A stretch of 61,533 bases of DNA, taken from the IMG/VR virus record IMGVR_UViG_3300045988_054859; one strand, 5' to 3'. Both the position numbers and the translations under genes were made by a program. Positions 9,017-58,574 of the stretch are shown here, in pieces; within the stretch, counting starts at the first letter, position 1; each line of letters opens with the position of its first letter. Origin of the DNA: a virus. The notes under the pieces are model-generated. The model was not told where the DNA came from. It did not search any database and was given only the letters and a program-made list of their open reading frames with translations.

Positions 9017-9051
9017 CTCTACTCTACTCTTCTTTACTCTACTCTACTTTG
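9017..9051. repeat. Seven tandem pentamers (CTCTA CTCTA CTCTT CTTTA CTCTA CTCTA CTTTG)
   Basis: Read directly. The run is entirely pyrimidine-rich on the plus strand. Confidence 0.8.
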
Positions 9052-35558: not shown

Positions 35559-37258
35559 TCCGCGTCGCCCTCCTCCTGTTTCATGTCAGCCAGCAGGCGG
35601 CGGACCTCTTTCATCACGGCGACGAGCTCCGTCTCATTAGCGGCTGCCGCTTTCTGAATCTGGCCGTCGAGCTGTTCCTCTACGCTAGGCCCGCCCTGCT
35701 GGGCGTTCTGTGCGGGCTTTGTCTCCGGTTGTGTGTTTTTCTTGCCAGCGTCAGAACCGACATTCTGCGCCACGCTGGGGCCGTTTCCAGCCACGGTGAT
35801 GGCTGCGGCCCGCTGCTGTGCGTTGGTAAACGCCAGCGGAATGTCGCCCCACTCCTCGGGGAAGTCCTCCGAGGTCTCGCCGAGGGCCTTGTACAGGACG
35901 CTCTTTGCCTTGTTCGGGGTGAGGCCGCCAGCGTTGTTGCAGACGGTCAGCAGCTTGTACAGGTCGTCCGGGTTGGAAACGTCCGGCGCGCGGAAGAACA
36001 CCTCGACGTACTTGAACTGATAGCAGTTGAGCAGCCTGTTGTTGATGGCCCACGCCAGACGCCGCCGCTCCGGCTGGAATACCTGTTTCTCGGTCACTTC
36101 CATGGCGGTCTGCGCGGTGGCGCGGTTGAAGTCCGTCGTGTATCCGGTGTACAGGTCCGGGAGCTGGAACGCGCTCTGCACCTTCCGCCGGTTGTTTTCG
36201 AGGTAGTCTTGGAAAAGCTCGTCCTTTTGCAGGATAGCTGCAAGGTCCTTGACCTCGACCTCCGGCCGGTTCTCGGCGTTGAATCCGGTGCGGTTGTCTG
36301 CCGCCTCCGTTTCCAGAACCATAAAACTGTGCTGGCCCGCCTCGCCTCGGATGCCGTTCATGTACTCCTTGAGCTTGGCGAAACTATCGTCCGTCAGGCT
36401 GCCGCCTTTCACCATAATCAGCAACGGGGTGTGTCGGCCGTTCAGGAAATAGTTATTGTTGAGGCTCTCCGCTCTCCGGGCCCCATCTACGGTAAGGATG
36501 GAACCAACCCACCGGACCTTGCCGTATGTTGCGGTCCCGATGGCGAACTCGATTATTTCGTTGGCGCGGCTCTTGAACTCGAGCTCGGTGACGTACTCTC
36601 CGCTCGTCGGGTCCATGATTCGCGGGTCTCCGAACTCCTTGTAGTAGACCGTCTTGCCGTTGACGGTCTGCTTATACTTGCGGAACTTCCTCATGCGGTT
36701 CTCGGTGTGGTCCCGGTGGAAATACGTCACCTCGACGCGCGGGTCCAGCCTCCGGCTCTTTTCCACGCTGGGGGTGTCCTCGATGAACTCGAGCTGTATG
36801 ACGTTCCCGTCCATATCCCGGATGACCTCTGCGTATGCGCAGCCGTAGGTTTCCCGGGCCTCCACGATGTCCTCAAAGAGCTCATTGCTCTCCTGCTCCA
36901 TGTTGAGCATCTCGACGACCTCCGCCGCCCGGTCCCATTCCGCTTTCATCTCCGGGGTTTCGTCCGCGTCCGCAAAGTCGTCTTTGTACCGGATGTCGAT
37001 GCCAAATCCGGCGATGTTTGACTTGTAGGCCCGGATGCACTGCGGGAGTATGGTGCTTTCGTCCACCATCTTGGAAAGCCCTCGGAGGTCGAACGGCGGC
37101 TTTGTCCAAATACCTGCCGTGCACGCCTCCTCCGGCGAGATTTGCAGGGAGCCGTCTGCTTTGGCGATGGGCTTCATCCCGCCGCGCTGCTCCGGGTCGT
37201 CCGCTTTAACGATGCGGACGTTTACCCGCTGCTGGGCGGGCTGCTTCTTGTCGCTCAC
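35555..37258 (-). CDS. Portal protein (567 aa)
   Basis: Size and position after terL. Pattern resembles PBSX-type portals. Confidence 0.8.
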   Translation of the reverse strand: MSDKKQPAQQRVNVRIVKADDPEQRGGMKPIAKADGSLQISPEEACTAGIWTKPPFDLRGLSKMVDESTILPQCIRAYKSNIAGFGIDIRYKDDFADADETPEMKAEWDRAAEVVEMLNMEQESNELFEDIVEARETYGCAYAEVIRDMDGNVIQLEFIEDTPSVEKSRRLDPRVEVTYFHRDHTENRMRKFRKYKQTVNGKTVYYKEFGDPRIMDPTSGEYVTELEFKSRANEIIEFAIGTATYGKVRWVGSILTVDGARRAESLNNNYFLNGRHTPLLIMVKGGSLTDDSFAKLKEYMNGIRGEAGQHSFMVLETEAADNRTGFNAENRPEVEVKDLAAILQKDELFQDYLENNRRKVQSAFQLPDLYTGYTTDFNRATAQTAMEVTEKQVFQPERRRLAWAINNRLLNCYQFKYVEVFFRAPDVSNPDDLYKLLTVCNNAGGLTPNKAKSVLYKALGETSEDFPEEWGDIPLAFTNAQQRAAAITVAGNGPSVAQNVGSDAGKKNTQPETKPAQNAQQGGPSVEEQLDGQIQKAAAANETELVAVMKEVRRLLADMKQEEGDAE

Positions 37259-38652
37259 TTCTTAACGTCTCCTCTCCTCTTGGGTTTGACCGGCAGGCAC
37301 AACAGGAGGATGCAGTCGGCCTCGTCGGGCGAGTGCATCCCGCGCTTTTTCATGGCGTCCTTGCTCTCCACGCGGATTTTGGCGTCGTCGGTCATGGAAT
37401 ACTTTCGTGTGGAAAGCTGGCCGACGAGGTCGTTATCGTTCGGGAGAATGAGCTGGACGGGCTTCTGTGCGCCCTCCGGCGTCTGCGGTGCAAGTAGATT
37501 CTTTACGACGCTCATCATGTAGGTGGTGCTATCGTAGTAAAAGTCATGGTGTATGCGCTGGCCGAAGTAAACGGGGATAATATCCATCCACCAGAACCGC
37601 TCCGGCTGCTCGCGCTTTACGCGCCGCAGACGGTCCGTGACGCCGCCGCCGAGGCCGCTGTCGTCTATCTTGATGGGGATAGCCTTGTCGAACCGGTACT
37701 TTTCCATGAGCTTTAGGCCGAGCTCCATGATGTCGTCGGCCGTCTGCATAAGGTCCTGCCCACTCTTTCGCTTGTAGAACATGGCCTTTTCGTCCACCTT
37801 GTAACCGATTACGGTGCGGTCGTCACCATAGCGGGCAACGTCGCAGCCGATGTCGATGCGGGCGGGCTTTGTCGGTTCCGTCCACTCGGTCATAATGGAT
37901 TTTTCGACTAGCGGCAGAGGGATGAAAACATCGTTCTCCTGCCGGGGGAACTCTCCGGCGACACGAACACGGAAAACGTCCGAATCCTCGCCGTACATCT
38001 GGATGATGGTTTTGACGAAGTCGTCCGAGACGCGGCTGCTGTTCCGGCCATCAACATGGAATGTGGTGTAGCTGCCTCTGTTCTTATGGTGGCTGTCATA
38101 AAAAAAGCCCGACAACTGTGTCGGGTTTCCGCACATGAGCAGCCGCGCTCCGGGCGTCGAAAGTGCGCCCAGCACCGGCTCGAACACCTTGTCGTCCACG
38201 CCGCTGGCCTCGTCGATGATGTAGAGGATGTCGTCAGCGTGGAATCCCTGCAGGGCGTCCGGCTTGCTGGCCGTTCGGGCCACAGCGAACCACTCCTCGG
38301 GGTACTGCTTCATGTAGACCTTTTCCTTTGTCCACATCAGCTCCCGCTCGAGGGCTTTATTGTTGCGCAGCCACTTGCTTATTTCCGCCCACAGAATATC
38401 GAATAGCTGATGCTGCGTCGGGGCCGTGCAAGGGATTTTGGGAAATGGCCGGGTTGACATAAACCAGATAACGGTCCACGCCTCGACCGCGCTCTTGCCG
38501 ATGCCGTGGCCGCTGCGGACGCTCGTCATCTGATTCTTTGCCACAGAATCCAATATGGCGCGCTGGTTCTTGTCCGGCGTAACGTGGAGCAGGTCCTCGA
38601 CAAAATCAGCCGGGTTGTCTGCGTAGTACAGGATAGCCTCTTGGGTCATCAC
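37255..38652 (-). CDS. terL: Terminase large subunit (465 aa)
   Basis: Walker A-like RSGHGIGKS, a downstream acidic Walker B (LYIIDEASGV), and a C-terminal nuclease-like region. Confidence 0.85.
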   Translation of the reverse strand: MMTQEAILYYADNPADFVEDLLHVTPDKNQRAILDSVAKNQMTSVRSGHGIGKSAVEAWTVIWFMSTRPFPKIPCTAPTQHQLFDILWAEISKWLRNNKALERELMWTKEKVYMKQYPEEWFAVARTASKPDALQGFHADDILYIIDEASGVDDKVFEPVLGALSTPGARLLMCGNPTQLSGFFYDSHHKNRGSYTTFHVDGRNSSRVSDDFVKTIIQMYGEDSDVFRVRVAGEFPRQENDVFIPLPLVEKSIMTEWTEPTKPARIDIGCDVARYGDDRTVIGYKVDEKAMFYKRKSGQDLMQTADDIMELGLKLMEKYRFDKAIPIKIDDSGLGGGVTDRLRRVKREQPERFWWMDIIPVYFGQRIHHDFYYDSTTYMMSVVKNLLAPQTPEGAQKPVQLILPNDNDLVGQLSTRKYSMTDDAKIRVESKDAMKKRGMHSPDEADCILLLCLPVKPKRRGDVKK

Positions 38653-39167
38653 GTCTGTTCTCCTCGTTTCCGGTTCTCGTATGCGGCCGCGATTTCATCG
38701 GCGAGGGAGAGCGTTGTTTCCTCCTGCTCCTCCGCCGTCTTGCCTCCGGCCGTGACGCCTGCCTCCTCCATCCGGTTATCCCGCTCAAGCTCTGTGGCCT
38801 TGTCGAGGAACTGGATAATGTCCTTTGGCGTCATCGACCCGTCCGGCAGATTCTTGAGCTCCGCGAGGGCTTTCTCTTGGAGCTGCAAGGCGATGCCGAT
38901 GTGGCGGGTCCTCATTTTTTTGTACTTTCGGAGTGCCTCTTGTCGGGCTACGTCATCCAAATGGTTGTCATACGCTCGGCAGCGTTCTCCCCACTTTTTC
39001 TCGCGGCTCCAACGCTTGATAAGCGTGTCACTCTTGGATAACTGTTCGGCAACGACCCGTAGGCTCCTGTTTGAGCCCATGTCTCGGTAGATGGCAAATG
39101 CCTCGTAGGCCTGCGCGCTTTCGCCCGGTTGACGCTCCCAAAGGTCGTCTTTGGTCCTATTCGGCAT
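38649..39167 (-). CDS. terS: Terminase small subunit (172 aa)
   Basis: Contains ESAQAYEAFAIYRDMGSNRSLRVVAEQL (HTH typical of Firmicute-phage terS). GGAGAGGAGG RBS. Overlaps the terL start. Confidence 0.7.
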   Translation of the reverse strand: MPNRTKDDLWERQPGESAQAYEAFAIYRDMGSNRSLRVVAEQLSKSDTLIKRWSREKKWGERCRAYDNHLDDVARQEALRKYKKMRTRHIGIALQLQEKALAELKNLPDGSMTPKDIIQFLDKATELERDNRMEEAGVTAGGKTAEEQEETTLSLADEIAAAYENRKRGEQT

Positions 39168-39186
39168 TGTCCTCCTCTCCTCACTT

Positions 39187-40032
39187 TCAGCTCTGTCCCG
39201 GGCTGCGAGGCTCCGCGCCCGTAATCCAGAATAGGGTGCTTTCCGGTGCGATGCCGGAGCTTCTAAACCACTGCATCGTCTTTGCCTCGTAATGAGGATG
39301 CAGGCGAATGCCCCCCCATGTAGCCGCTGCGGACTTCTCATAGACGAATCCGGGGCTGTGGAAAAGGTCGTGGTACTCAAACTCTCGGTCTGCGCCGTAC
39401 TTTTTGAGGGTCTCATGGATGAATCCGCGCCGGTCCGGGGCCGTGGCTACGAGGTGCATCCTCTTGACCCGTTTCCCGTACCTGTGCAGTCCTATCATCA
39501 CGCCGGTGGCGGTGATGCCGCTGCCGCAGGTCATCACGAGGTTTTCTATATCGTCCGGGAGGTTCTCTGTCTGCGCCGCAACTGCGGTTAGCAGCGTGTC
39601 GCCGTACCCGATGATATTGATGCCGTACTGGACAATAAAGCTGTTTTCCTGCGCCGCCAGCTCTTTTGCGCGGGCGTGTAAAATGCTGTGGCGGCCGGAA
39701 CGTGCTGCGAGCACTATGGACGCCCCATATTTCATCGCCAGCCGGGGCATAGGCAGAGCCGCAACGCTCTCCCGGGTGGTTCCGCCGTACACGATTCTGC
39801 ACGGCATCCCGTTTGCCCGGGCAACCGCTGCGGTGATGGGTGCTTGCGGGGAGTGGATGCTGCAATACGTCAGCAGGCTCTTGTAGTCCTTCTTGACGCT
39901 GTTCACCAGCATCACGCATTGCCGGAGCTTTCCTCCGTTCACCTCTCCGGGGCCAAACGGGGCATAAAGGTCGTCCCGCTTGATGTGCAGCCCGTCCACC
40001 TCCTGAACCGGCGTCAGGCTGTACTCATTCAT
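39187..40032 (-). CDS. Fold-type-II PLP-dependent enzyme, ACC-deaminase/D-cysteine-desulfhydrase-like (281 aa; an alternative TTG start lies at 40074)
   Basis: Contains LHIKRDDLYAPFG...NGGKLRQ (the family signature is KRDDL...GNKxRKL). A glycine-rich TCGSGITATG loop is also present. The ATG at 40032 overlaps the upstream stop codon. Confidence 0.65.
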   Translation of the reverse strand: MNEYSLTPVQEVDGLHIKRDDLYAPFGPGEVNGGKLRQCVMLVNSVKKDYKSLLTYCSIHSPQAPITAAVARANGMPCRIVYGGTTRESVAALPMPRLAMKYGASIVLAARSGRHSILHARAKELAAQENSFIVQYGINIIGYGDTLLTAVAAQTENLPDDIENLVMTCGSGITATGVMIGLHRYGKRVKRMHLVATAPDRRGFIHETLKKYGADREFEYHDLFHSPGFVYEKSAAATWGGIRLHPHYEAKTMQWFRSSGIAPESTLFWITGAEPRSPGQS

Positions 40033-41044
40033 CCAGTCCAAACACCTTTCTGTGGTAGTCGGTCTTTTTGGCAAGCTCCTCCTGCATCAGGCCGTAAAAG
40101 CTCTGCTTTGCAATTTTGCGCCCGCTGCCCGCGCTCTGGTTCAGCGTCTTGAACGGTCCGCCCGTCCCGACTTCTTTCATCTTTTCCGTCGGCTCCGGGT
40201 TCTTGCCGTTCATCAGCATACAGAGGTTATACTCGTTCGGCCGGAATCCGGGCAGGCCGTCGATGCCGCAGCAAGTCATGCTGTCGCCCATTGCGCGGAG
40301 CCTGTTCTCGCCGCTGTAGAATTTCAGGCCGTACCGATGGCACTCCGCCTTGATGGCTTCAAAATCGTGCCGGAGGCGGGGCAGCGGATAGCAGAAGTCA
40401 CCGCCGATTTTCGTCATGCCGGGTTTGGCCTTAAAGAACTTCATGCCCTCCACGATGACGCCGTAGGCTCCTGCCTCCGCGATGCGAGGGATGTTCTTCA
40501 TAACGTCATGGAACACCTCGGGCATATACGGCTGGATGCGGACGATGGTGCGCTGCACTCTGGCCGATACCGTCTTGAGGATGGCGAGCCGCTCCTCGTA
40601 GCTGGGCGTCCCGCGTTCGAGGCGGTCGTACTTGCTGCACACCATGCTGATTTGCAGCACACAGTTGCACTGTGCCAGCAGGTCGAGGTACTCCGGGTCC
40701 GCAATGAGGCGGCCCTTTGTGCTCACCACAAACGGATATTTCGTCTCCGCCAGCAGCTTGAGGCATTCGTAGCTGGCGCGAATCTGCTTTTCGACCGGCT
40801 GGAACGGGTCACTCATGCCTCCCCAGTGGATAGGGATGTTCCAGTCGCACCACTCCGTTTCGTTGCCGCGCTTGCCCTCGATAAAGGAGCGCAGGCCGTC
40901 TACGCTTTCGTCGCGCTCGATGTGGCTAATGTCGTTCTTCTTCTGTGCGAAGCAGTACCGGCAGCCGTGTGAGCAGCCGCGATAGGTGTCGAAACGCACA
41001 GGAAGGTTACAGAGAATAATCTGGCTCCCGCATTTGCAGCCCAT
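40025..41044 (-). CDS. Radical SAM enzyme, spore-photoproduct-lyase/'DNA repair photolyase' (COG1533)-like (339 aa)
   Basis: CxxxCxxC cluster in the context YRGCSHGCRYCFA near the N-terminus, followed by a TIM-barrel-length body. TAATG coupling to the upstream gene. Confidence 0.7.
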   Translation of the reverse strand: MGCKCGSQIILCNLPVRFDTYRGCSHGCRYCFAQKKNDISHIERDESVDGLRSFIEGKRGNETEWCDWNIPIHWGGMSDPFQPVEKQIRASYECLKLLAETKYPFVVSTKGRLIADPEYLDLLAQCNCVLQISMVCSKYDRLERGTPSYEERLAILKTVSARVQRTIVRIQPYMPEVFHDVMKNIPRIAEAGAYGVIVEGMKFFKAKPGMTKIGGDFCYPLPRLRHDFEAIKAECHRYGLKFYSGENRLRAMGDSMTCCGIDGLPGFRPNEYNLCMLMNGKNPEPTEKMKEVGTGGPFKTLNQSAGSGRKIAKQSFYGLMQEELAKKTDYHRKVFGLDE

Positions 41045-41613
41045 TAAATCTCACCTCTAATCTTCTGGACGATGACGGCAACAAGGTCCTCTTTGCCGTT
41101 GTCCTTTATGTACTCTTTCAGGACGTCGCGGTCCTCCGCGCTAAACTTGAGCGAGATGTTGAACGTCTCCTCAATGCTCTTGAGCTCGCTGTCGAGGAAG
41201 TCGCCGTCCACGAGGGCGTCCACGTTGTTCTCAAGGGCCTCGATTTCGTACAGGTCGAATCCCGTCTCCGGGGCTGCGTCTCCAAGGCCGTCCAGCAGCT
41301 CCTTGAGCTTTACCTCGTCCCATTCGCCGGTCACTTTGTTCATAGCGATGTTGAGCTGCTTTTCTGCGGTCTCGTCGAGGTCCACCACGGACACGTCCAC
41401 CTCGGTTACGCCCTCGTTCATAAGGACGGTGAGCCTCTGGTGGCCGGACACGACGCGGTTGGTGCGCCTGTTCCAAATGACAGGGACGACCATGCCGAAC
41501 CGCTCAATGTTCCGCTTGAGCTTCTCGTACTCGTCATCACCGGGCATCAGCTCCACGCGAGGGTTGTACTCCGCGCGCTCCATGTCGGTGATTCTTTTTT
41601 TGATAATTTCCAT
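41044..41613 (-). CDS. ParB/Srx-fold N-domain protein, paralog 2 (189 aa)
   Basis: Contains YNPRVE...RNIERFGMVVPVIWNRRTNRVVSGHQRL...NIAMNKVTGEWD...TGFDLYEIE. This is the ParB module usually fused to phage DNA methyltransferases, but no MTase domain is present. Confidence 0.7.
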   Translation of the reverse strand: MEIIKKRITDMERAEYNPRVELMPGDDEYEKLKRNIERFGMVVPVIWNRRTNRVVSGHQRLTVLMNEGVTEVDVSVVDLDETAEKQLNIAMNKVTGEWDEVKLKELLDGLGDAAPETGFDLYEIEALENNVDALVDGDFLDSELKSIEETFNISLKFSAEDRDVLKEYIKDNGKEDLVAVIVQKIRGEI

Positions 41614-42200
41614 CAGATAAGCCCCTTCGCCTTGTTCACGAGCAACTGCGCCAGTTCGACCTTGCCTGCGGGGTTCTCGTCAATGTACTTATCCATTGCC
41701 TCATGCACCTCCTCGGGCAGGGTGAACGTCATGGTGTAGCTTGTCGGCTCGCTCTTGCCGGTGTCGGAAAAGTCCTCGTTCAGCAGGTCCTCGATATGGT
41801 CGTATGTCACCTTGAGGGCGTCGAGTTCCCAGTCCTCGAAACCAGTGAGGGCCATTTCGTCCTGCTCTTTCAGCTCGTCCAGAATCGCGGTGAGCTTTTC
41901 GTTGTCCCACCGGCCGGAGATTTTGTTGAGCGAGACGTTAAGGATGCGCTCCTCCTGTTCGTTGAGCTCGACCTCGACGACTTCGACCGTCTTGTAGCCC
42001 TGCTCCACCAGCACCTTGAGCCGCTGATGGCCGCCTACGATGTTGCCGGTGGTCCGGTTCCATACGATGGGCTCAACATAGCCGAAAGTCTCGATGCTCC
42101 GGGCCAACTTGTCGTACTGCTTGTCGCCCGGTGCGAGGTCTTTCCTCGGGTTGTAGTCCGCCGGATGGAGGTCGCTCACCGGCAGGGTGATAATTTTCAT
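41613..42200 (-). CDS. ParB/Srx-fold N-domain protein, paralog 1 (195 aa)
   Basis: Contains YNPRKD...RSIETFGYVEPIVWNRTTGNIVGGHQRL...NVSLNKISGRWD...TGFEDWELD. GGAGGA lies 7 nt before the ATG at 42200. Confidence 0.7.
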   Translation of the reverse strand: MKIITLPVSDLHPADYNPRKDLAPGDKQYDKLARSIETFGYVEPIVWNRTTGNIVGGHQRLKVLVEQGYKTVEVVEVELNEQEERILNVSLNKISGRWDNEKLTAILDELKEQDEMALTGFEDWELDALKVTYDHIEDLLNEDFSDTGKSEPTSYTMTFTLPEEVHEAMDKYIDENPAGKVELAQLLVNKAKGLI

Positions 42201-42215
42201 CTGCCGTTCCTCCAC

Positions 42216-42230
42216 GACCCTTTTCGGGTC
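42216..42230. promoter_or_regulatory. Operator-like dyad GACCC-ttttc-GGGTC
   Basis: Perfect member of the G(T/A)CCC-N5-GGG(T/A)C family. It sits between the leader terminator and the RBS of the first late gene. Confidence 0.4.
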
Positions 42231-42240
42231 TATAACACAT

Positions 42241-42276
42241 AAAAAAATAAGGACCGCCCGGAGTCGGGCGGTCCTT
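42241..42276 (-). terminator. Strong intrinsic terminator separating the early genes and leader from the late operon
   Basis: Perfect 12-bp stem aaggaccgcccg/cgggcggtcctt with a 4-nt loop, followed by attttttt on the minus strand. Confidence 0.8.
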
Positions 42277-42340: not shown

Positions 42341-42369
42341 ATTGTATCTCAGACCTTGCGCCCTGTCAA
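42341..42369 (-). promoter_or_regulatory. Promoter TTGACA-17-TACAAT
   Basis: The minus strand reads TTGACAgggcgcaaggtctgagaTACAAT. It lies about 65 nt upstream of the terminator stem. Confidence 0.65.
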
Positions 42370-42410: not shown

Positions 42411-43052
42411 TTAAGCCTTCTTGATGCCGTCGATGCCGAAAATCAAGGCCGACAGTGTGGCACAGGCTGCGTCCACATCCTTGTAGACGGTTCTCTTGTC
42501 GATGCTTTCCATCTCTGCTACGGCGGCCGGAGAGAGGGGCCGGTCCCGCAGATACAGGGCCTCGATAACGCGGTAGTGCCTCTGTTCGGCCTCGTCCAAA
42601 CTGTTCCCGCATACCGCCTTGTAGATGTCGAGCATCCGGTTCACATGGCGCATGATAATCTGCGTCCGGGCTGCGGACTTCATGATGCTTTCTACCTTGA
42701 GGTCGTCCTCAAGCAGCTCGTCCAGTGCCTCCACAATTTCTTCAACGCTCTCCTCGCCGGTCGCTGCGCTGGCCGCGTCGTATACTGCATTGGCACAGTT
42801 GGCATTAAGCGTGGTATAGTTACGCAGCAGGAGCTTTGTGTTACGGAATCTCCGGTCGCTACGGCTGTCCCGGAACTTCTTGCGCTCCTGCTCCACGGCC
42901 TTGATGCTGGCCTCCGCTCCGAGGCGGGCAGCGTCCGTCACAGCGGCTTCTACGCTCTCCTGTATCTCTTTCCCCAAGATGGCTCGAACGGCAGCAACAG
43001 CCGCCTTTGCCGCCACCTCTGCGGCCATTACCACAATTTCTTTTTCAGTCAT
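42411..43052 (-). CDS. ArpU/RinA-like late-gene transcriptional regulator (213 aa)
   Basis: The C-terminus AEQRHYRVIEALYLRDRPLSPAAVAEMESIDKRTVYKDVDAACATLSALIFG resembles sigma region 4. Its position just upstream of the packaging genes is typical. Confidence 0.55.
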   Translation of the reverse strand: MTEKEIVVMAAEVAAKAAVAAVRAILGKEIQESVEAAVTDAARLGAEASIKAVEQERKKFRDSRSDRRFRNTKLLLRNYTTLNANCANAVYDAASAATGEESVEEIVEALDELLEDDLKVESIMKSAARTQIIMRHVNRMLDIYKAVCGNSLDEAEQRHYRVIEALYLRDRPLSPAAVAEMESIDKRTVYKDVDAACATLSALIFGIDGIKKA

Positions 43053-43950
43053 TATGTTCCTCCTCGGTAACACCCGGCAGCTCGTCGAGCAAGGCTTTGG
43101 AAATTTTCTTGAGTGTCTCACAGGCAGTCACCACTTCGAGTGCGGAGACCCCGCTTTTCTTCATGGCCTCTGCGAGCTTGCCCGCGCTGTCCTCCGTGAT
43201 GGGGACACCCATAAATGAGAATATCGGTTTTTCCATGTTCGGCTGCTCCCTCCGTATTTCGTTCACCAGCATAAAGCGTTCCGGCGTCGTCCAGTTCATC
43301 AGGCGGCTCAACCTGCACACGGCCGCGCGCCACTCGTCCGTCTCTGGCTTCGTCCCGTAGGACATCCCGCAGAACGCCGTGAGCACGTCGCTCGCGCACG
43401 AGAGCTGGTCGATGTCGTCCATCGTGGGGATGTCCCGCAGCAGGTCCGGGGTAAAGCCCGGGCCAAACCGTACCGCGTATTCCTTGAGGTCCGGCTCCGT
43501 GACATAGCTCCGGCCGTACCGCTGCTTCATGCTGCGCCAGACTGTCCACGGGATTCTGTACATCCGTAGCCCGTCGAATGTGGCGACGATGAAGCAGTGC
43601 GCGCCGAGGGCTTCGTAGGAATCGAGCTTTTTGGCCTGCTCCGGGAGAACGCGGTCTTTGTTCAGCCTGCCCGTCCCGGTGCTCTTTGCCTCGAACATCA
43701 CCGCGCGGCCTCCGAGCATGACGCCTTTGAAATCAGGTTCCGCCTTTTTGGTATACACCGCGCGGAACTGCCCCGACTTGTTCGGCTGGCTCACCGGTTT
43801 CATCGGCTCCGGCGTCTTGCTTATGTCGGCTCGGCCCGTCTCTGTCAAAAGAGCGCATGAGGCTTCTATCTGTTCTTCCAGCCTCCCTCCCTGCGCGCGG
43901 CTCCGTGCTCCCTGTAAGGCCCGGAGCGGGTCCTTTACCGGACCGCTCAT
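43045..43950 (-). CDS. recU: RecU-like Holliday junction resolvase with a roughly 130-aa C-terminal extension (301 aa)
   Basis: Contains GGRLEEQIEASC...ADISKTPEPMKPV...FRAVYTKKAEPDFKGVMLGGRAVMFEAKST...GAHCFIV, the RecU core pattern. Confidence 0.6.
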   Translation of the reverse strand: MSGPVKDPLRALQGARSRAQGGRLEEQIEASCALLTETGRADISKTPEPMKPVSQPNKSGQFRAVYTKKAEPDFKGVMLGGRAVMFEAKSTGTGRLNKDRVLPEQAKKLDSYEALGAHCFIVATFDGLRMYRIPWTVWRSMKQRYGRSYVTEPDLKEYAVRFGPGFTPDLLRDIPTMDDIDQLSCASDVLTAFCGMSYGTKPETDEWRAAVCRLSRLMNWTTPERFMLVNEIRREQPNMEKPIFSFMGVPITEDSAGKLAEAMKKSGVSALEVVTACETLKKISKALLDELPGVTEEEHND

Positions 43951-44424: not shown

Positions 44425-44670
44425 CTATAAAATATTCATGTGAAGCGGCTGCCCGGTGTCAAGCTGCCGATGGATGAACTCACGCTCGAGGCAGTTACTC
44501 ACCATAACGAGGGCTCGCAGCTCTCCGGGGAGAATCTTGCTGTCGAGATAGAGCTTCTCAATTTCCGGCCCCCGCGCGTGGAGCTCCCGGATGGCCGCCT
44601 CCGCGTCCTCCCACTCGGTCAGGTCGTACAGCTCGCCGAGTGCCTTGTCGAACTCACTTTTTTCCTGCAT
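44425..44670 (-). CDS. Hypothetical protein (81 aa)
   Basis: Lies in the early operon. No recognisable motif. Confidence 0.5.
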   Translation of the reverse strand: MQEKSEFDKALGELYDLTEWEDAEAAIRELHARGPEIEKLYLDSKILPGELRALVMVSNCLEREFIHRQLDTGQPLHMNIL

Positions 44671-45337
44671 CGCTGGCCTCCTGCTTTGCCGTCTCTTTGT
44701 CCAGATTATCCTTGAGCCGGTCGAGCTTGTCCCATACGATTTTCGTGATGTTTACCAGCTCGTGAGGGTTAAAAATTGCAAAGAGCTGCACCAGCATGAT
44801 GAAAACATCAGCAGTTTCCTCCTCGATGTTCGAGTACACTTCCTGCGCCTCCCGGTTGAACGGGGTATCATACTTGCGCTTGCACTCTTTGAGCTTGCAG
44901 AGAGCTTTGGTGAGCTCCGACATTTCCTCCACAGCCTTGGTGAGCTGGGCGTCTTTGCCGTAAGTACCGATGGCGCGGTCGATGGTCTGCAAGCCCTCCG
45001 GCATAATCTCCGGGATGAGCGCGTCCTCGTAGTGCTTGAGCTTGTCGCGCAGCGAGGCGAGAGCCCACGAGAGGGTGTAGTGCTCTGCCAGCAGGCCCTC
45101 GATGGTCTCCGGGCCGTCGAACAGGTGCTCGCACAGGGTCATGTCGAACTCCTCCGGCGTTCCCTCGGTGTCAATATCTGCGTTGTGTGCCTTGATAAGC
45201 TGCTTCATGTAGTCGTTGAGGCTGATGCTCCGGCTGGGCATCTGCACCCAGCCGTCCTCGCCGCGCACGAACAGGTTGAGAGCCTGCGAGTAATTCCCAT
45301 CCGGGGTGTCGGTCGTCATTCTTCTCTGCGGAAACAT
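44654..45337 (-). CDS. MazG-like nucleotide pyrophosphohydrolase domain protein (227 aa)
   Basis: The C-terminal half has AVEEMSELTKALCK...EEETADVFIMLVQL (EExxE...ExxD metal motifs). The N-terminal roughly 110 aa are uncharacterised. GGAGGA RBS. Confidence 0.6.
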   Translation of the reverse strand: MFPQRRMTTDTPDGNYSQALNLFVRGEDGWVQMPSRSISLNDYMKQLIKAHNADIDTEGTPEEFDMTLCEHLFDGPETIEGLLAEHYTLSWALASLRDKLKHYEDALIPEIMPEGLQTIDRAIGTYGKDAQLTKAVEEMSELTKALCKLKECKRKYDTPFNREAQEVYSNIEEETADVFIMLVQLFAIFNPHELVNITKIVWDKLDRLKDNLDKETAKQEASDAGKK

Positions 45338-45433
45338 AAATTTTGTCCTCCATTTTTCAAATTTGGTGGTCAAAGATTGAAATATGCTTAAATCGTTTTC
45401 AAGTTTCGTGGTTGGATTTTGCTTGTTTTTCTT

Positions 45434-45909: not shown

Positions 45910-46436
45910 GCGCTTTCCTCGATTACTTTGAGGTCATACCCGCTCTTGACAAACTTCATACACAGTTCGTGTTTGATGCCGTTGCCGAGGTAGGTGTAGA
46001 TGTACTCCATGTCCTCCTGCGTGAAATTGGTGTCAAGCAGCTTGTTGACGCCATCAAGATGCTCCTTGCGCAAAGGTTTCGTGTAGCCCTTGCTTGCCAA
46101 ACGGGAGCAATTCTCGATGATTTTGGCTTTGAACTCGTCCGGGGTGCTGCAGTGGTTGAGGTTGATGTATGTGTTCGTCCTCGGGACGAGAATCAGCTCG
46201 AAGTTCATGGTGACGTAGGCTTTCGGGAAAGCGCGCTGAATCTTCCCGCACCACGGAGCCGCGAACGGGCTGAACCACGGCAGCATATAGCTGCGGAGCT
46301 CCTGCTGACTGACTGCTGGGGCGTCCTGAATGTGGTCGATGCAGCGCTCGATGGCCTCCCGCTCTGCGAGGCTGTCCGCCTCCTCGAGCCATCCGTTGAA
46401 TACACGGACGGTTTCCTCTGCGTTAATCGGTTTCAT
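45906..46436 (-). CDS. Hypothetical protein (176 aa)
   Basis: Overlapping stop/start codons on both sides. Confidence 0.55.
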   Translation of the reverse strand: MKPINAEETVRVFNGWLEEADSLAEREAIERCIDHIQDAPAVSQQELRSYMLPWFSPFAAPWCGKIQRAFPKAYVTMNFELILVPRTNTYINLNHCSTPDEFKAKIIENCSRLASKGYTKPLRKEHLDGVNKLLDTNFTQEDMEYIYTYLGNGIKHELCMKFVKSGYDLKVIEESA

Positions 46437-47095
46437 AACTGTCCTCCAAATTGCTCTGCAAATGCTCGAGCGACTCCCGGGAATGTCTTTGCGCGATTTC
46501 GCGCTCTGTCTCTCGTAAACATTCCCTTGTTTTTTTCATCATGTTTGTGGGAATAAGAGCCAGATGGGCACCACGTTGCAATCGGCTCAACAATGTTCGT
46601 CGGCGCGACCGGGTCAAGATTTTTCAACCATAGACAGGTTTTCTTGCTGTATGGGTGTCCAAACTGGTACGGCTGAATAATCTGCGTGTACTCTGGGAGA
46701 CAAAATACCCTGCTCGGCACCGGATTCTCAACGCATATTCTCGGGATGTCCGCCCACCAGAATCTCATAAACAGGTCGCGTCCTAAAATTCCTTTCATTA
46801 CGCGGTCCTCTTGTAGCTGGTGGCCTTTCCACAGATGTCGTGCTCCGGCGTTTGAAAGATATGTGCATGGCGGGTGCGCAATGAGCAAGTCCCACGCATC
46901 AATGTAATGCGCTTTGTCGTCCATTGTGACGATTTGCCCCCCCCCCCGCAGAGCCGGTACGGCGTCTCCGAGGATATGCCATTCCGGGTGGCCTCCGGAC
47001 GGTTCCTGCACATCGCAGGAGTAAGCCTCATGCCCTAAAGACCGAAATGCCTTACAAACTTCCTGCGATTCCTCGCAGGCAATTAAAACTTTCAC
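46433..47095 (-). CDS. Short C5-cytosine DNA methyltransferase-like protein (220 aa) containing a G11 tract
   Basis: Contains VLIACEESQEV (motif I-like), AHPPCTYLS (PC motif IV), CVENPV (ENV motif VI) and a C-terminal RNRAKTFPGVARAFAEQF. The frame is intact with 11 G. Confidence 0.6.
   Translation of the reverse strand: MKVLIACEESQEVCKAFRSLGHEAYSCDVQEPSGGHPEWHILGDAVPALRGGGQIVTMDDKAHYIDAWDLLIAHPPCTYLSNAGARHLWKGHQLQEDRVMKGILGRDLFMRFWWADIPRICVENPVPSRVFCLPEYTQIIQPYQFGHPYSKKTCLWLKNLDPVAPTNIVEPIATWCPSGSYSHKHDEKNKGMFTRDRARNRAKTFPGVARAFAEQFGGQL
46937..46947. repeat. Homopolymer C11 (G11 on the coding strand, encoding RGGGQ) inside the methyltransferase gene
   Basis: Counted by eye as 'gatttg' then 11 c then 'gcagag'. 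Confidence 0.9.
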
Positions 47096-54354: not shown

Positions 54355-57300
54355 TCAAGAGTAGATGACCTTGCTGCCCTCCGCCGTCTTTACAACGTCA
54401 ACGGCCTGCGGGAAACGGGCTTTCATCTCCGGGTCGTGAGTGATAGCCATAATCTTGAGCGAGGAATACCGTTTCTGGATGGCCTCGAGGGCGTCGCAGT
54501 AGGCCTGTACACCCTTGTCGTCGAGGAACGGCGGCTCGTCGATAAACAGGAATCCGAGCTGCACTCCTGCGGTGCTGCTCTTGAGCTCTGCCAGCGCAAG
54601 GATGACCGAGAGGGCCGCCTTAACGCGCTCGCCGCCGGAACGGCTCATATAGGGCAGAGCTCCGGTCGCCGCGTCGTTTACGATGATGTCCAGCGCGGTG
54701 ACCTCTTTCTTGCTGTTGCTCTTGAGGGTCTTTTCCATGCGCATCTCAATGCTCATGTGGCCGCCTGACATCTGGCTGATGATGCTCGTCGCGGTCGCCT
54801 CGAACAGCGGGACGATGCTGCGGACGATGTTATGCGGAATACCGTCCTGAGAGAAAGCCCGCTTGAGCTCCTCATAGCCCGCTGCAAGCTGGCCCTGTTC
54901 CGTCGCCTGACGGCGAAGGACTTCGAGCTTTGCCTCTGCCGTCTCGATTTCTTCCATCTGCCTGCGGCTGTGTCCGGCCTGCTGGTCCAGCTCTTCAATG
55001 CGGATATTGTCCACCGTGAGGGCTGCATCCGCCTCCGCGTACTGCTCCTTGAGTTCGTCAACATCAGCCTGCGCCTTTGCGAGGGTCAGAATCTCCGCAT
55101 TGATGCCATCAATCGCCGTCCGGGTCTTTTCTGCGTAGGTCAGGAGCTCCGTGAGGCGGGTCTGCGCTGCGCTCTTTTTAGCCTCCGCTGCCGGGAGCAG
55201 CTTTTCCAGCTCGATGTATTTCTTAACGTCCGAAAGCTGCGCCTCAATGCTGGCGAGCTCCGCTGCGTTCTGCCGGAGCTTTTTCAGCTCGTCCTCAACG
55301 ACGAAACGGTCTGCCTCGAGGCTCTCGATATTGGCCGGAATGGTTTCAAGCTCCTCGTCGATGGCCTTGATGCGCTCTTTAACTTCCGCGAGGCGTTCTT
55401 TCTGCGCCGCCAGCTTTGCGAACCGCTCCGAGGCTTTCCGCAGGTCTGCAACGAGGAAACGCTGGGCCTGCAAATCCTTGCGGCAGTTGAGGCCCGTTGC
55501 CTTTTTCTTTGCGGCCTGATACTCAGCGTCGAGCTGCTCGGCGCGCTCCTCAGCCTGCTGCCGGTAGGTTTCCAGTTCCGTCTCGGCCGCAGGCAGTTTC
55601 TTTTTCGCCTCCACTGCATCCTGCAGGAAACGGCATTCCGGGTTCTCGACCGGGCAGCCGCAGGTCTCGAGCATGATGGCCCGGGAGCGGATATGTGTGA
55701 CCTCGTTCTCTTTTATGTCGAGCCAAGACTGTATCCGCGCGGTTTCTGCGTTCTTGGTTTGGAGCAGCTTCATGGCCTCTTGGTCTGCTGCGAGATACTG
55801 CTCGTCCTGTTCTTCCAGCGCGGTGAGCCGTTCGCTCGCTCCTGCGAGGTCTGCCGCTTTCCGCTCGAGCTCGTCATAGTCCGCGAGGGCCTGCTCATAG
55901 CTCCAACACGTTGCCTGTGCAGAAAGTTTTTCGGCCTCGAGACTGCCTTTCTTTTTCCGCTGGGCAGAGAGCGCGGCCATAACGTCCCGCAGCTTTTCTT
56001 CCTTGGGCTGAATCAGGGCCGCCGTTCCCAGCAGCTCCTCCCGCCGTGCGGAAAGTTTTCCGTAACTCTGGCTGCCTGCCTCTACCTCCTCGCGCTTATC
56101 GAGGAGAGCCTGCGCATCGGAAATCTGCGCTCTGCAAACAGCCTGCGCGCTGGCGTTCGCGTTCTTCTCCGCAATCCAAGAGCCGAGCTCGCTGGCGAGT
56201 TTTTCCGACCGCTTCTGTGCCTGCTTGGCAATGTCGAGCTTTGTCTGCGCCTCGCTCATGGCCTTTGTGTGGATGGCCCTGTCTGCTACCGCGCTGGCCT
56301 TTTCGACGGCCGTCTTGTTCATGGCCGCCTCGACCGTTGCCTTGTCCGGCATCGTCCGCCCGGTCTCCTCCTGCAAATCCGCGACGCGCCGGAGCTCCCG
56401 GTTGGCGTCTGCTGCCCGGTTGGCCGCCATGCTCTCCATGCGGTCATAAATGCCGAGGCCGAGGATGTTGCCGAGAATTGCCATGCGGTCCGCCTTGTCG
56501 GCCTGCAAAAAGAGGCCGTACTGGTCCTGCATGATAAGGCCGGTCGCCTTGAGCGTCAGGCTGTCCATGCCGATGGTGTTCTCGATGATGGCCTGCGTAT
56601 CGCGGTATTTCTCCGCGCTGCGGTTCTGCCAGCTCTCGTCCACATACTCGGAGAGATTCAGCGTCGCCTTGCCGCTCTTTGTGCGGGTGCGTGTCACGCG
56701 ATACAGCTTGGTGCCGAGGTAAAACGTGAACTTGATGGAACCGCTGCGGGCATCCGGGTCGTTGCAAATCCAGCCAGTGAGGTCGCCCTCCCGGGGCTCC
56801 TCGAAAAGGGCGTCCAGCATGGCGTCCATGAACAGGCTGGACTTGCCTGCGCCGTTCTCGCCGTTGATGGTTGCAAAGGAAATGCCGTCGTAGCTGAACA
56901 GTTCGTCGCGGTAGTTGCGGTAGTTCTTGACCTCTATTTCCACCGGCATAAACAAGCCGGTCGGGGTCTCAAGGCGGCCTTTTTCCATTGCCTCCGAGAT
57001 AATCGGGCGGGCCAGCTCGATTATGCGCTGGGCGTCCTCCGGGCTCTTTTCCTTTTCGGCGAGGTACTCGGCGAGGTTCTGCTCCGGGCTGTTGTCGCCA
57101 TGGAGCTCGTCGCGGTTCACGCTTGTCGTGATTTCCTCCGGCGTGATTTCGGAGACATAGAACACACCACCGTCATAGAGCCTTTTCTCAAGGACAGCTT
57201 TGTTGAAAGCCTTGTTTGTTTCGTCCGAACAGGTGTAGAGAACGCGGACGATTTTTCCCTTGAGGCGGTCAGGTACAACGACCCGCTCCGCGCTCAACAT

Positions 57301-58191
57301 TGTGCAGACATCGTCCTCGTTGAGGCGGATGGTCTCGAACTCCCGGTAGGGCGTTTCGATGTACTCACTCCATGCCTCCCCGTCGTCGTCGATGTCGTGG
57401 ATGTAAAAGCCTCGCGGCTGGCCCTCGTCGTTGAAGTTGAGGCCTGTAATGCTGCCGCAGTAGAACACCGCACGGCCTGCCTCCGGGAGCTGCTGCGGCC
57501 GGTGGATGTGGCCGAGTGCTACGAGGTCAAAGTCTGCAGCTTTCAGGGTGTCTGGGTAGATGACGGGCTCAAACTGTGCAAATAGCGCGGTCTGGCCGCT
57601 CTCCATGTTGCATCCCGGGACAGTGAAGTGCGTAGACAGGATGCTCGTCACACCGGGCTCGCACTGTGCTTTCAGGCCGAGAACGACCTTTGCCAGCTCG
57701 TCCGTGAACACCTGCGTTTCCTCCTCTCGAGAGAGACCCGGGTGCGCTGCCCGGTGTACGCCACGGTCAAAGCCCGGAATACACGCCACATCTACGCGCT
57801 GCCCGTGGTAGGTGTGGATGTGGATCACCTCCGGCTCCGTTACGACGCTGACCGAATCATCGCCGTAAAAAGCCGTCGTCAGCATCTCGAACTGCTCCTC
57901 GCTGTCGTGGTTCGGAGTGCCACGCAACACGACGGTCGGGGCCACGTTGGAAAGCCGCCGGATGTGGTCTATGGCTGTCCGGCTCTCGCGGAGACCTCTG
58001 TCCGACCATACGCGGGCCTGATGGAAAATGTCGCCAGAGACGACGATAAGGTCCGGCCGGTGCTCCTCCGCGTACATCGCCTGAAAATCAAGGCAGCGGC
58101 AGATGTCCTGAAAACGGGCATTCTGTCCGCCGACCTCTGGCCCGGGGAAACTGCCGATGTGCCAGTCTCCGGTGTGCAATACTTTCAGCAT
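54355..58191 (-). CDS. Fused SbcD(Mre11)-SbcC(Rad50)-like nuclease-ATPase (1278 aa)
   Basis: The N-terminus has LHTGDWHIG...VSGDIFH...GTPNHD...GHIH (calcineurin-like phosphoesterase). Next come Walker A NGENGAGKSS, about 600 aa of coiled coil, the signature SGGERV and Walker B FLFIDEP. Confidence 0.75.
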   Translation of the reverse strand: MLKVLHTGDWHIGSFPGPEVGGQNARFQDICRCLDFQAMYAEEHRPDLIVVSGDIFHQARVWSDRGLRESRTAIDHIRRLSNVAPTVVLRGTPNHDSEEQFEMLTTAFYGDDSVSVVTEPEVIHIHTYHGQRVDVACIPGFDRGVHRAAHPGLSREEETQVFTDELAKVVLGLKAQCEPGVTSILSTHFTVPGCNMESGQTALFAQFEPVIYPDTLKAADFDLVALGHIHRPQQLPEAGRAVFYCGSITGLNFNDEGQPRGFYIHDIDDDGEAWSEYIETPYREFETIRLNEDDVCTMLSAERVVVPDRLKGKIVRVLYTCSDETNKAFNKAVLEKRLYDGGVFYVSEITPEEITTSVNRDELHGDNSPEQNLAEYLAEKEKSPEDAQRIIELARPIISEAMEKGRLETPTGLFMPVEIEVKNYRNYRDELFSYDGISFATINGENGAGKSSLFMDAMLDALFEEPREGDLTGWICNDPDARSGSIKFTFYLGTKLYRVTRTRTKSGKATLNLSEYVDESWQNRSAEKYRDTQAIIENTIGMDSLTLKATGLIMQDQYGLFLQADKADRMAILGNILGLGIYDRMESMAANRAADANRELRRVADLQEETGRTMPDKATVEAAMNKTAVEKASAVADRAIHTKAMSEAQTKLDIAKQAQKRSEKLASELGSWIAEKNANASAQAVCRAQISDAQALLDKREEVEAGSQSYGKLSARREELLGTAALIQPKEEKLRDVMAALSAQRKKKGSLEAEKLSAQATCWSYEQALADYDELERKAADLAGASERLTALEEQDEQYLAADQEAMKLLQTKNAETARIQSWLDIKENEVTHIRSRAIMLETCGCPVENPECRFLQDAVEAKKKLPAAETELETYRQQAEERAEQLDAEYQAAKKKATGLNCRKDLQAQRFLVADLRKASERFAKLAAQKERLAEVKERIKAIDEELETIPANIESLEADRFVVEDELKKLRQNAAELASIEAQLSDVKKYIELEKLLPAAEAKKSAAQTRLTELLTYAEKTRTAIDGINAEILTLAKAQADVDELKEQYAEADAALTVDNIRIEELDQQAGHSRRQMEEIETAEAKLEVLRRQATEQGQLAAGYEELKRAFSQDGIPHNIVRSIVPLFEATATSIISQMSGGHMSIEMRMEKTLKSNSKKEVTALDIIVNDAATGALPYMSRSGGERVKAALSVILALAELKSSTAGVQLGFLFIDEPPFLDDKGVQAYCDALEAIQKRYSSLKIMAITHDPEMKARFPQAVDVVKTAEGSKVIYS

Positions 58192-58574
58192 CACATATCC
58201 TCCCTGAGCAGCTCTTTGATGATGTCGTCGAGCTTGCCGCGCCGCGCTGCATCCGCACGAGACTTCGCGCACTGAATATTCCTCATTTCATCTTCGGTCG
58301 GAACCTGCGCGTAGACCTTGTGGCCAGAGCTGATGCTGAACGAAATGTAGTCCAGCGCGAGCTTTGCGAGCTCGGTGCGGTCCGGGCTGCGGAACGTCCC
58401 GATAGGGCAGCAGGTGCGCTCGGCGTTGGTGTAACGTCCGCCGCCGGAAATAAAGATGGTCGCCATGAGCTGTGCCTCGTGAGGGATTGTTTCAGTCTCC
58501 TTGACCTCAAACATTGCCACGTTGTCCGAATTGACGGCGACCATGCCGTCCTGCGAAAGAATCATCATAATCAT
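58191..58574 (-). CDS. Hypothetical protein (127 aa)
   Basis: ATGA coupling on both sides. Confidence 0.5.
   Translation of the reverse strand: MIMMILSQDGMVAVNSDNVAMFEVKETETIPHEAQLMATIFISGGGRYTNAERTCCPIGTFRSPDRTELAKLALDYISFSISSGHKVYAQVPTEDEMRNIQCAKSRADAARRGKLDDIIKELLREDM

Follow-up and report, generated by a model that had tools for sequence, protein, structure and literature searches.

The virus record IMGVR_UViG_3300045988_054859 of IMG/VR is a DNA stretch of 61,533 nucleotides, which is called the window below. At the head of its late operon lies a cassette of four consecutive minus-strand genes, which encode two ParB-like paralogs (ParB-A and ParB-B), a radical S-adenosylmethionine (SAM) enzyme (rSAM) and a fold-type-II pyridoxal phosphate (PLP) enzyme. 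An original prediction, made from the letters of the DNA before any database search, had proposed this cassette as a candidate DNA-modification or anti-restriction module. The four open reading frames (ORFs) were found where that prediction had placed them, between a promoter/terminator leader and the packaging genes terS and terL, and the ParB, rSAM and PLP motifs that it quoted were present (Table 1).

Genes at the head of the late operon

The four cassette genes overlap stop-on-start. The ParB-B/rSAM junction reads TAATG at 41044 and the rSAM/PLP junction is an 8-nt overlap, ATGAATGA, at 40032-40025, both in line with the original prediction, whereas the ParB-A/ParB-B junction at 41613 reads TGATG and not TAATG as had been given. 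Translational coupling of the four genes, as read from these junctions, is confirmed. The PLP ORF is open upstream as far as TTG 40074. The leader ahead of the cassette consists of a predicted promoter and a hairpin that begins 65 nt after it, directly ahead of ParB-A. Together the two elements look like an antitermination-controlled late-operon leader. The promoter is a single site, and the region-wide count of such sites is not above shuffle expectation. A gene with a sigma-region-4-like match (phrog_1558; 42411-43121) lies directly upstream of this leader.

Table 1 Cassette genes and adjoining features of the window
Feature	Position	Strand	Basis and remarks
ParB-A	41613-42215 (GTG) open; likelier start ATG 42200, giving 41613..42200	minus	GGAGG ribosome-binding site at the likelier start; ParB/Srx N-terminal module of phage-methyltransferase type, with a ~50-aa C-terminal tail
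ParB-B	41044..41613	minus	Paralog of ParB-A; start overlaps the ParB-A stop
Radical SAM enzyme (rSAM)	40025..41044	minus	COG1533/SplB-like superfamily; Pfam Radical_SAM
Fold-type-II PLP enzyme	39187..40032	minus	281 aa; ACC-deaminase/D-Cys-desulfhydrase clade; Pfam PALP, 46.7 bits
terS	38649..39167	minus	phrog_6299, E = 1.6e-32; first packaging gene, starts 20 nt past the PLP stop
terL	37255..38652	minus	ORF position and terL homologs downstream in related loci; Terminase_6N/Terminase_3 seen in loci L005 and L165
Putative late-operon promoter, sigma-70-like	42341..42369	minus	TTGACA-17-TACAAT; 11/12 consensus matches
Leader hairpin like an intrinsic terminator	42249..42276	minus	12-bp stem, 9 GC pairs, T run; between promoter and ParB-A

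ParB and the radical SAM enzyme form the conserved unit

Relatives of rSAM formed 1,319 clusters (90% identity) in a large protein collection, and at least 305 IMG/VR contigs encode one. Gene linkage was examined in two sets of loci: 86 loci whose rSAM is 62-100% identical to that of the window, and 74 loci, 35 of which are more divergent (~50% rSAM identity). ParB-A, ParB-B and rSAM occurred together in 86/86 loci of the first set, with terS and terL next wherever the contig was long enough. A ParB ORF ended at the rSAM start in 73 of the 74 loci of the second set, and the single exception is cut by the contig end. Most of the divergent loci of this set have a single ParB. The ParB-rSAM pair precedes several unrelated families of terS, terL and portal genes, and the order ParB-rSAM-terS-terL is retained even around a 406-aa long form of rSAM with ~35% identity (L165). 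Recurrence of the window's gene order in dozens of independent phage contigs shows that these ORFs do not stand together by chance.

The PLP gene was intact in 54 loci of the first set, split in 6 and absent from 23 (~28% of close relatives), and in these 23 loci rSAM adjoins terS directly. None was detected in the 35 more divergent viral loci of the second set. Three loci (L018, L020 and L043; ~9017-9035) encode a 99% identical rSAM without a PLP gene and differ from window positions 39167-40032 by a clean cassette-type indel, in which a 45-nt spacer replaces the PLP gene and the final rSAM codons are slightly different. With the window, these loci make up a natural set of isogenic-like alleles that differ in the presence of the PLP gene. 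ParB plus rSAM is the conserved unit, and the PLP gene is accessory; the linkage of all four genes suggested in the original prediction thus stands for the ParB and rSAM genes and not for the PLP gene.

Among species-representative genomes, true members of the rSAM family were found only in anaerobes, mostly gut or host-associated, and a ParB gene lay upstream of rSAM wherever the flank was present. The prophages and genomes with the family belong to Lachnospiraceae, Ruminococcus, Peptoniphilaceae, Collinsella, Coriobacteriaceae, Ellagibacter and Victivallis. Related prophages are also present in Faecalispora jeddahensis and Anaerotruncus colihominis (P0009, P0073). Proteins in which ParB and rSAM, rSAM and PLP, or ParB and PLP parts are fused (P0005, P0076, P0087 and P0172) were dismissed as evidence of functional linkage, because they are 94-100% identical to unfused neighbours or come from a lone deletion contig, and the 1-nt stop/start overlaps make fusion by frameshift trivial. 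The deletion contig (P0172; L249:4492-5730) joins ~125 N-terminal residues of ParB-A to the PLP enzyme, with ParB-B and rSAM deleted, and probably reflects either decay of the cassette or faulty assembly.

Several divergent loci carry further genes beside rSAM. A ParB-ParB-rSAM locus (L108:4754-5548) is followed by a phrog_1569 protein with an S-adenosylmethionine synthetase N-terminal domain, which hints at high SAM consumption by the cassette. Another locus (L155:5021-8002) has the order ParB, rSAM, ParB and then a Mom-like DNA-modification protein (phrog_1384); two distinct chemistries of DNA modification would then be encoded next to each other. Two more loci (L153 and L156) share the ParB-rSAM-ParB order and seem to be arranged alike, the Mom-like gene having been scanned in L155 only. 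A phage-like contig (L161:2478-7284) encodes a 427-aa long-form rSAM relative with no ParB detected; a PLP gene resembling gp52 of Pseudomonas phage M6 (phrog_7093, E = 1e-31) lies 3 kb upstream of its rSAM gene, and a MazG-like pyrophosphatase gene lies between the two. The apparently cellular locus L163:6001-13221 encodes a 406-aa long-form rSAM relative followed by proteins of 252 aa and 169 aa and a 1,623-aa NACHT/AAA protein, and may be a defence-island setting.

The ParB-like proteins are of the methyltransferase-associated type

ParB-A and ParB-B are 40% identical over their full length, and both carry the motifs YNPR, G(G/S)HQRL, NK(I/V)(S/T)G.WD and TGF. ParB-A scored 28.9 bits against Pfam ParB_N (cutoff 26.3), and ParB-B scored 18.6 bits, under the cutoff. 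Matches in PHROGs were phrog_498 (E = 8e-46) and phrog_620 (E ~1e-45), and PADLOC matched the module to the N-terminus of MTase_II (PDLC03229) with E = 5e-40. The first ~130-145 residues match the N-terminal module of ParB-methyltransferase fusions. GenBank phage records matching this module numbered 151, and in nearly all of the best 40 the match fell within a gene annotated as a DNA methyltransferase (mostly adenine-specific) of a Firmicutes phage; identity to the N-termini of phage adenine methyltransferases was 44-62% over residues 1 to ~145. The earlier description of a methyltransferase-type module without a methyltransferase domain was borne out by these matches. The fusions share with the cassette a gene position ahead of the terminase, with several small genes between in the two records inspected. 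They differ from it in that the ParB proteins of the window lack a methyltransferase domain, are free-standing and duplicated, have a tail of their own and are coupled to rSAM.

Hallmarks of partition proteins were missing. The GERRxR P-motif is replaced by G(G/S)HQRL, no helix-turn-helix (HTH) family was found in the Pfam scan, and the canonical ParB model TIGR00180 gave 23.6 bits against a cutoff of 58.45. These results indicate that ParB-A and ParB-B are not canonical partition ParBs. The last ~50 aa of both paralogs (window 41044-41200 and 41613-41770) follow a conserved beta-alpha-alpha pattern, TFxMTFTLPxE...YI...GK.ELA..IINKVKG, and were not found in ParB-methyltransferase fusions. The tail resembles a ribbon-helix-helix DNA-binding domain but was not assigned to a known DNA-binding fold, profile searches of PDB and Pfam having given nothing significant.

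The radical SAM enzyme and its relatives

The cluster motif of rSAM, C24-x3-C28-x2-C31, lies in the sequence YRGCSHGCRYC. Three further cysteines are invariant in the family (C12, and C258 and C259 in a CCG motif), as are the motifs PIHWGGMSDPFQPVE, STKG, RIQP, ExxK and ENRLRxxGD (ENRLRAMGD in the window protein). An AlphaFold2 model (pLDDT 94.2) was searched with Foldseek, and the best PDB matches were four spore photoproduct lyase (SPL) entries (E = 1e-7 to 9e-7; TM 0.52-0.53), followed by generic radical SAM folds. The SPL-like character named in the original prediction is upheld by this top match (TM 0.53). SPL (SplB; PDB 4fhc/4fhe/4k9r) is a radical SAM enzyme whose direct substrate is duplex DNA, where it works at the methyl group of thymine. 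It shares with rSAM the CxxxCxxC core and is its best solved-structure match over ~280 columns, which amounts to a resemblance only. The two are 14-15% identical, and rSAM lacks the N-terminal domain of SPL, since its Fe-S motif starts at residue 24. F32 follows C31 in rSAM, whereas a Tyr stands directly past the third cluster Cys in SPL. No invariant Cys occurs 40-50 residues past the cluster of rSAM, whereas the hydrogen-donor Cys of SPL lies ~45 residues past it. The conserved cysteines of the two differ in position (C12 and C258/C259 in rSAM, C140/141 in SPL).

Sequence searches placed rSAM elsewhere. No SPL model of NCBIfam matched it at E <= 0.1, its match to the Rv2578c/PA0069 model of NCBIfam was far under the cutoff, and phmmer against PDB gave noise only. 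The rSAM family profile scored 15.5 bits (E = 0.08) against SPL, 44 bits against gp53 of phage M6, and 80-100 bits against cellular COG1533 proteins of the Rv2578c/PA0069 type. By sequence, then, rSAM is not an SPL. The cellular COG1533 proteins are uncharacterised and have been reported as SOS-regulated repair genes (PMC8565304). A tblastn search of GenBank phages with rSAM returned two unannotated matches only (~24% identity), and annotated cultured relatives are therefore lacking.

The accessory PLP enzyme

The PLP enzyme carries IKRDDL and NGGKLRQ, with K35 as the predicted Schiff-base lysine. Its best PHROG was phrog_3650 (E = 6.5e-48) and its second phrog_7093 (E = 4.7e-14). An AlphaFold2 model (pLDDT 94.4) matched Salmonella D-cysteine desulfhydrase in Foldseek (E = 6e-13; TM 0.70-0.72) and the ACC-deaminase homolog 1j0a (TM 0.74). 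These matches, together with the Pfam PALP score, agree with the ACC-deaminase/D-cysteine-desulfhydrase type assigned earlier. With the enzymes of that clade (4d8t, 1f2d and 1j0a; fold TM 0.70-0.74) the protein shares GGKLR in place of GGNKLRK, the GSG loop and the C-terminal Y..K and TG motifs; it differs in being ~50 residues shorter and in its phage-specific context. Curated NCBIfam cutoffs were not reached (TIGR01275, 32 bits vs 289; TIGR01274, 22 bits vs 392). Since 51 homologs all keep the lysine motif, glycine loop and C-terminal motifs unchanged, the enzyme is probably catalytically active.

Homology to the thymidine-hypermodification enzymes of phage M6

A characterised pair of radical SAM and PLP enzymes is known from phage M6. 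Its gp53 is an SPL-like radical SAM enzyme with the motif CTVGCAFC, which isomerises N-alpha- to C-alpha-glycinylthymidine in DNA, and its gp52, a PLP enzyme whose Schiff-base lysine is K36, decarboxylates C-alpha-glycinylthymidine to 5-(2-aminoethyl)uridine (5-NedU); PDB 1j0a was the template for a model of the gp52 homolog gp226 of phage ViI (Lee et al. 2021, PMC8989533). M6 gp53 has been described as the first validated radical SAM enzyme that installs a DNA modification (PMC11472151), and our literature searches turned up no second validated DNA-modifying radical SAM enzyme besides it.

The gp53 and gp52 ORFs were located in the M6 genome (L248) and compared with the family profiles of the window proteins. 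Results showed that the rSAM family aligns with gp53 (hhalign 98.5%, E = 2e-15) over 251 columns at 16% identity, and the PLP family with gp52 (hhalign 96.2%, E = 2.5e-9) over 251 columns, end to end, at 25% identity. The Schiff-base lysines align, K35 of the window enzyme with K36 of gp52. In addition, gp52 is a member of phrog_7093 (530 bits), the second-best PHROG of the window PLP enzyme. Genes for an rSAM and a short PLP enzyme of the ACC-deaminase clade are adjacent in both phages, and the motifs CxxGCxxC and SDPF(Q/L)P(V/I)E are common to the window and M6 proteins. We presume that phrog_9252 is the PHROG family of gp53, which was not itself scanned against PHROGs; the window rSAM gave no match to it. 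The homologies of rSAM and of the PLP enzyme to gp53 and gp52 are at the superfamily level and do not indicate orthology, given the higher scores of COG1533 proteins and of D-cysteine desulfhydrase.

There are also clear differences between the two phages. In M6 the gene order is reversed relative to the window, and no ParB gene accompanies the pair; gp53 is extended by ~115 aa at its N-terminus, and its C-terminus is rich in Cys. The lifestyles differ too: M6 is virulent and infects Pseudomonas, and the window phage is temperate, with gut anaerobes as hosts. The M6 pathway moreover depends on three enzymes that were not found in the scanned ORFs of the window (~38.6-61.5 kb plus selected left-end ORFs), namely a dUMP hydroxymethylase, a 5-hmdU kinase and a glycine:DNA transferase. 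Because these upstream enzymes were not found there, the M6 pathway cannot run in the window phage as published. The original prediction had noted both the resemblance to the rSAM and PLP tailoring enzymes of thymidine hypermodification and the missing hydroxymethylase, kinase and transferase, and the homology to gp53 and gp52 substantiates the resemblance.

Other features of the window

Upstream of the cassette, PHROGs matches were obtained for a RecU resolvase, the phrog_1558 protein and a MazG-like pyrophosphatase (44654-45373). The window also encodes a serine integrase, a repressor, an SbcCD-like nuclease, a replication initiator and a DnaC-like loader, and we assign it to a temperate phage of gut Clostridia. 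Within the replication/recombination module, a single minus-strand ORF of 1,305 aa (54355-58272) matches SbcD-like PHROGs in its N-terminal part and SbcC-like PHROGs in its C-terminal part, and appears to be a fused SbcCD-type nuclease. A 220-aa minus-strand protein (46433-47095) matches phrog_757 'DNA methyltransferase' and has C5-methyltransferase-like PPC and ENV motifs; it gave no Pfam match, and a SAM-binding motif I (FxGxG) could not be recognised. As a companion of the cassette this gene was rejected, having been found in 2/86 related loci, few of which reach far enough upstream. A PADLOC scan of the four cassette proteins found no known defence component except the N-terminal ParB/methyltransferase match.

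Discussion

On balance, the evidence leans towards the cassette being a late-expressed, post-replicative DNA base-modification module with a ParB and radical SAM core and optional PLP tailoring. A DNA target, which the original prediction had thought likely, is what we infer from the homologies: every characterised or context-informed rSAM relative is linked to DNA, which supports DNA as the substrate here as well, and the rSAM/PLP pairing has a homologous, characterised and DNA-acting precedent because hhalign ties both families to gp53 and gp52, at the superfamily level only. The patchy presence of the PLP gene is what would be expected of a dispensable terminal tailoring step. The gp52-like PLP gene of L161, the SAM-synthetase-like neighbour in L108 and the Mom-like neighbour in L155 also fit a role in DNA modification and lend it some support.

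The ParB part of the cassette has a precedent too. Certain post-replicative thymine dioxygenases of phages act on double-stranded DNA only when activated by their own cognate ParB-like protein, which lacks a DNA-binding domain (5mYOX176/ParB176; O'Toole et al. 2026, PMC13229309), and ParB-dependent dioxygenase modules are frequently found near terminases (PMC13229309). As in those modules, whose ParB-like protein has a nucleotide-binding domain and a C-terminal region, a short ParB-like gene with no recognisable HTH adjoins an enzyme gene in the window, whose product would, by homology, modify DNA. The partner there is an O2-dependent Fe(II)/2-oxoglutarate dioxygenase, whereas that of the window is an oxygen-sensitive radical SAM enzyme in phages of strict anaerobes, and the lineage of the window differs further in having two ParB paralogs. 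No description of a ParB plus rSAM module was found in the searchable literature, and a survey of ParB-CTPases makes no mention of radical SAM (PMC12704722). The view that the combination is not a described system holds to that extent; the rSAM/PLP pairing is precedented by M6 gp53/gp52, and ParB activators by the dioxygenase modules (PMC13229309).

A more specific proposal, which we make only tentatively, is that ParB and rSAM are an anaerobic counterpart of the ParB-dependent thymine dioxygenases, in which a canonical base would be functionalised directly, bypassing the 5-hmdU, kinase and transferase steps. The intermediate would most plausibly be a thymine C5-methyl radical, and an optional gp52-like PLP enzyme would trim the adduct, giving a minimal two- or three-gene route of hypermodification that would be widespread among phages of gut anaerobes. 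Since the hosts are strict anaerobes, C-H functionalisation by a radical SAM enzyme, which needs no oxygen, would naturally take the place of a dioxygenase.

The activator role, target base and chemistry that we infer would run as follows. The ParB-like proteins, two in the window and one in most other lineages, may derive from the ParB module of phage DNA adenine methyltransferase N-termini and would bring the catalytic partner onto duplex DNA or activate it there. The [4Fe-4S] cluster of rSAM would cleave SAM to a 5'-deoxyadenosyl radical, which would abstract hydrogen from a DNA base flipped out of the duplex. The likeliest site of abstraction is the C5-methyl group of thymine, or an adduct on it, because SPL and M6 gp53 both work there. 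The invariant C12 and C258/C259 may serve as hydrogen-atom donors or as a radical relay. Where present, the gp52-like PLP enzyme would carry out the last tailoring of an amino-acid-like adduct with a free alpha-amine, for which decarboxylation is the closest precedent. With the genes at the head of the late operon, concatemeric DNA would receive the modification shortly before it is packaged.

Several observations weigh against this interpretation. No dUMP hydroxymethylase, P-loop 5-hmdU kinase, amino-acid:DNA transferase or TET/JBP enzyme was found in the ORFs scanned. No DNA-binding domain was found in the ParB proteins by the Pfam scan or by the tail profile searches of PDB and Pfam, and NTP binding by them is uncertain because GERRxR is replaced by G(G/S)HQRL. 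Both enzyme families score higher with other relatives than with the M6 proteins: cellular Rv2578c/PA0069-type proteins outscore gp53 against the rSAM profile (80-100 vs 44 bits), and D-cysteine desulfhydrase outscores gp52 against the PLP profile (38.9 vs 25.8 bits). The position ahead of the terminase is by itself weak evidence, because this slot gathers unrelated accessory genes in many phages.

A different chemistry on the same substrate would be the transfer of a substituent from SAM alone, which would still be DNA modification. The ParB plus rSAM unit is complete without another conserved partner, so that SAM may be the only co-substrate; rSAM could then C-methylate the base in the ping-pong manner of RlmN/Cfr, C12 and C258/C259 acting as methyl carrier and resolving cysteine, or could thiolate or methylthiolate it with sulfide supplied by the PLP enzyme. 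The conserved cysteine shortly before the cluster motif and the pair far towards the C-terminus do recall RlmN, and the SAM-synthetase-like neighbour in L108 suggests high SAM consumption. D-cysteine desulfhydrase is the best structural match of the PLP enzyme, and an accessory sulfur donor would parallel DndA, which is often missing from Dnd loci. However, RlmN and Cfr were not among the 50 best Foldseek matches of rSAM, where MiaB, LipA and BioB came only at ranks 22-50, and three extra invariant cysteines, two of them vicinal, are a poor ligand set for an auxiliary cluster. One Cys of the CC motif may align in gp53 (in a low-quality alignment) and gp53 has by eye a pre-cluster Cys, yet gp53 is an isomerase. 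The PLP enzyme, moreover, is far under the D-Cys desulfhydrase cutoff (32 vs 289 bits). None of the four cassette proteins had a Dnd/Ssp match in PADLOC, and the PLP enzyme is of fold type II, unlike the fold-type-I cysteine desulfurase that accompanies PP-loop DndC/SspD and DndD/E in Dnd/Ssp phosphorothioation. We consider such a simple methyl or sulfur transfer unlikely, and nothing was found to support the sulfur transfer onto DNA that the original prediction had entertained.

Repair of DNA before packaging is another reading, with rSAM as an SPL-like lyase that removes thymine-thymine or other radical-repairable lesions and the ParB proteins scanning or loading on DNA. SPL is the best structural match of rSAM, its nearest sequence relatives are the cellular COG1533 proteins reported as SOS-regulated repair genes (PMC8565304), and several related prophages reside in Clostridia-class genomes. 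Against these points, rSAM is no SPL by the NCBIfam models (no match at E <= 0.1) or the family profile (15.5 bits), the cassette is expressed with the late operon rather than upon damage, and the gut is an unlikely place for UV lesions. Repair would also leave unexplained the gp52-like PLP enzyme, the SAM-synthetase-like and Mom-like neighbours and a ParB module that is otherwise fused to methyltransferases, and it seems to us quite improbable. Slightly less probable again is a function away from DNA bases, in which the ParB proteins would take part in packaging or partition (pac-site marking or a terminase accessory) or act as NTPase or nuclease in anti-defence, and rSAM and the PLP enzyme would be auxiliary metabolic or anti-defence enzymes acting on a small molecule, a nucleotide or a protein. 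ParB-fold proteins do have diverse NTPase and nuclease roles (PMC12704722; PMC10853773), and the cassette lies directly upstream of terS, in a slot with many unrelated accessory genes. Some long-form rSAM relatives have no detectable ParB neighbour, and one stands beside a NACHT protein in a cellular context. Set against this, the stop/start overlaps between ParB and rSAM occur nearly everywhere in the viral loci and across terminase families, which argues that the two act as one unit whatever the packaging genes beside them. The ParB module, moreover, is of the methyltransferase-fused type, and all informative rSAM relatives act on DNA.

The cassette defines a large phage-borne family, abundant in human-gut phages and with prophages in several gut phyla, in which a radical SAM enzyme of the superfamily of M6 gp53 is tied to a methyltransferase-type ParB without the known upstream enzymes. 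M6 gp53 itself works late in a multi-enzyme pathway. The natural alleles with and without the PLP gene are a ready-made test of the tailoring step. If the cassette does modify DNA, it would represent a new oxygen-independent way to derivatise DNA bases, and the role of ParB-like activators would extend to a second enzyme superfamily of DNA modifiers. Abundant human-gut phages would then carry an unrecognised modified base, with a bearing on restriction evasion, sequencing artefacts and enzyme discovery.

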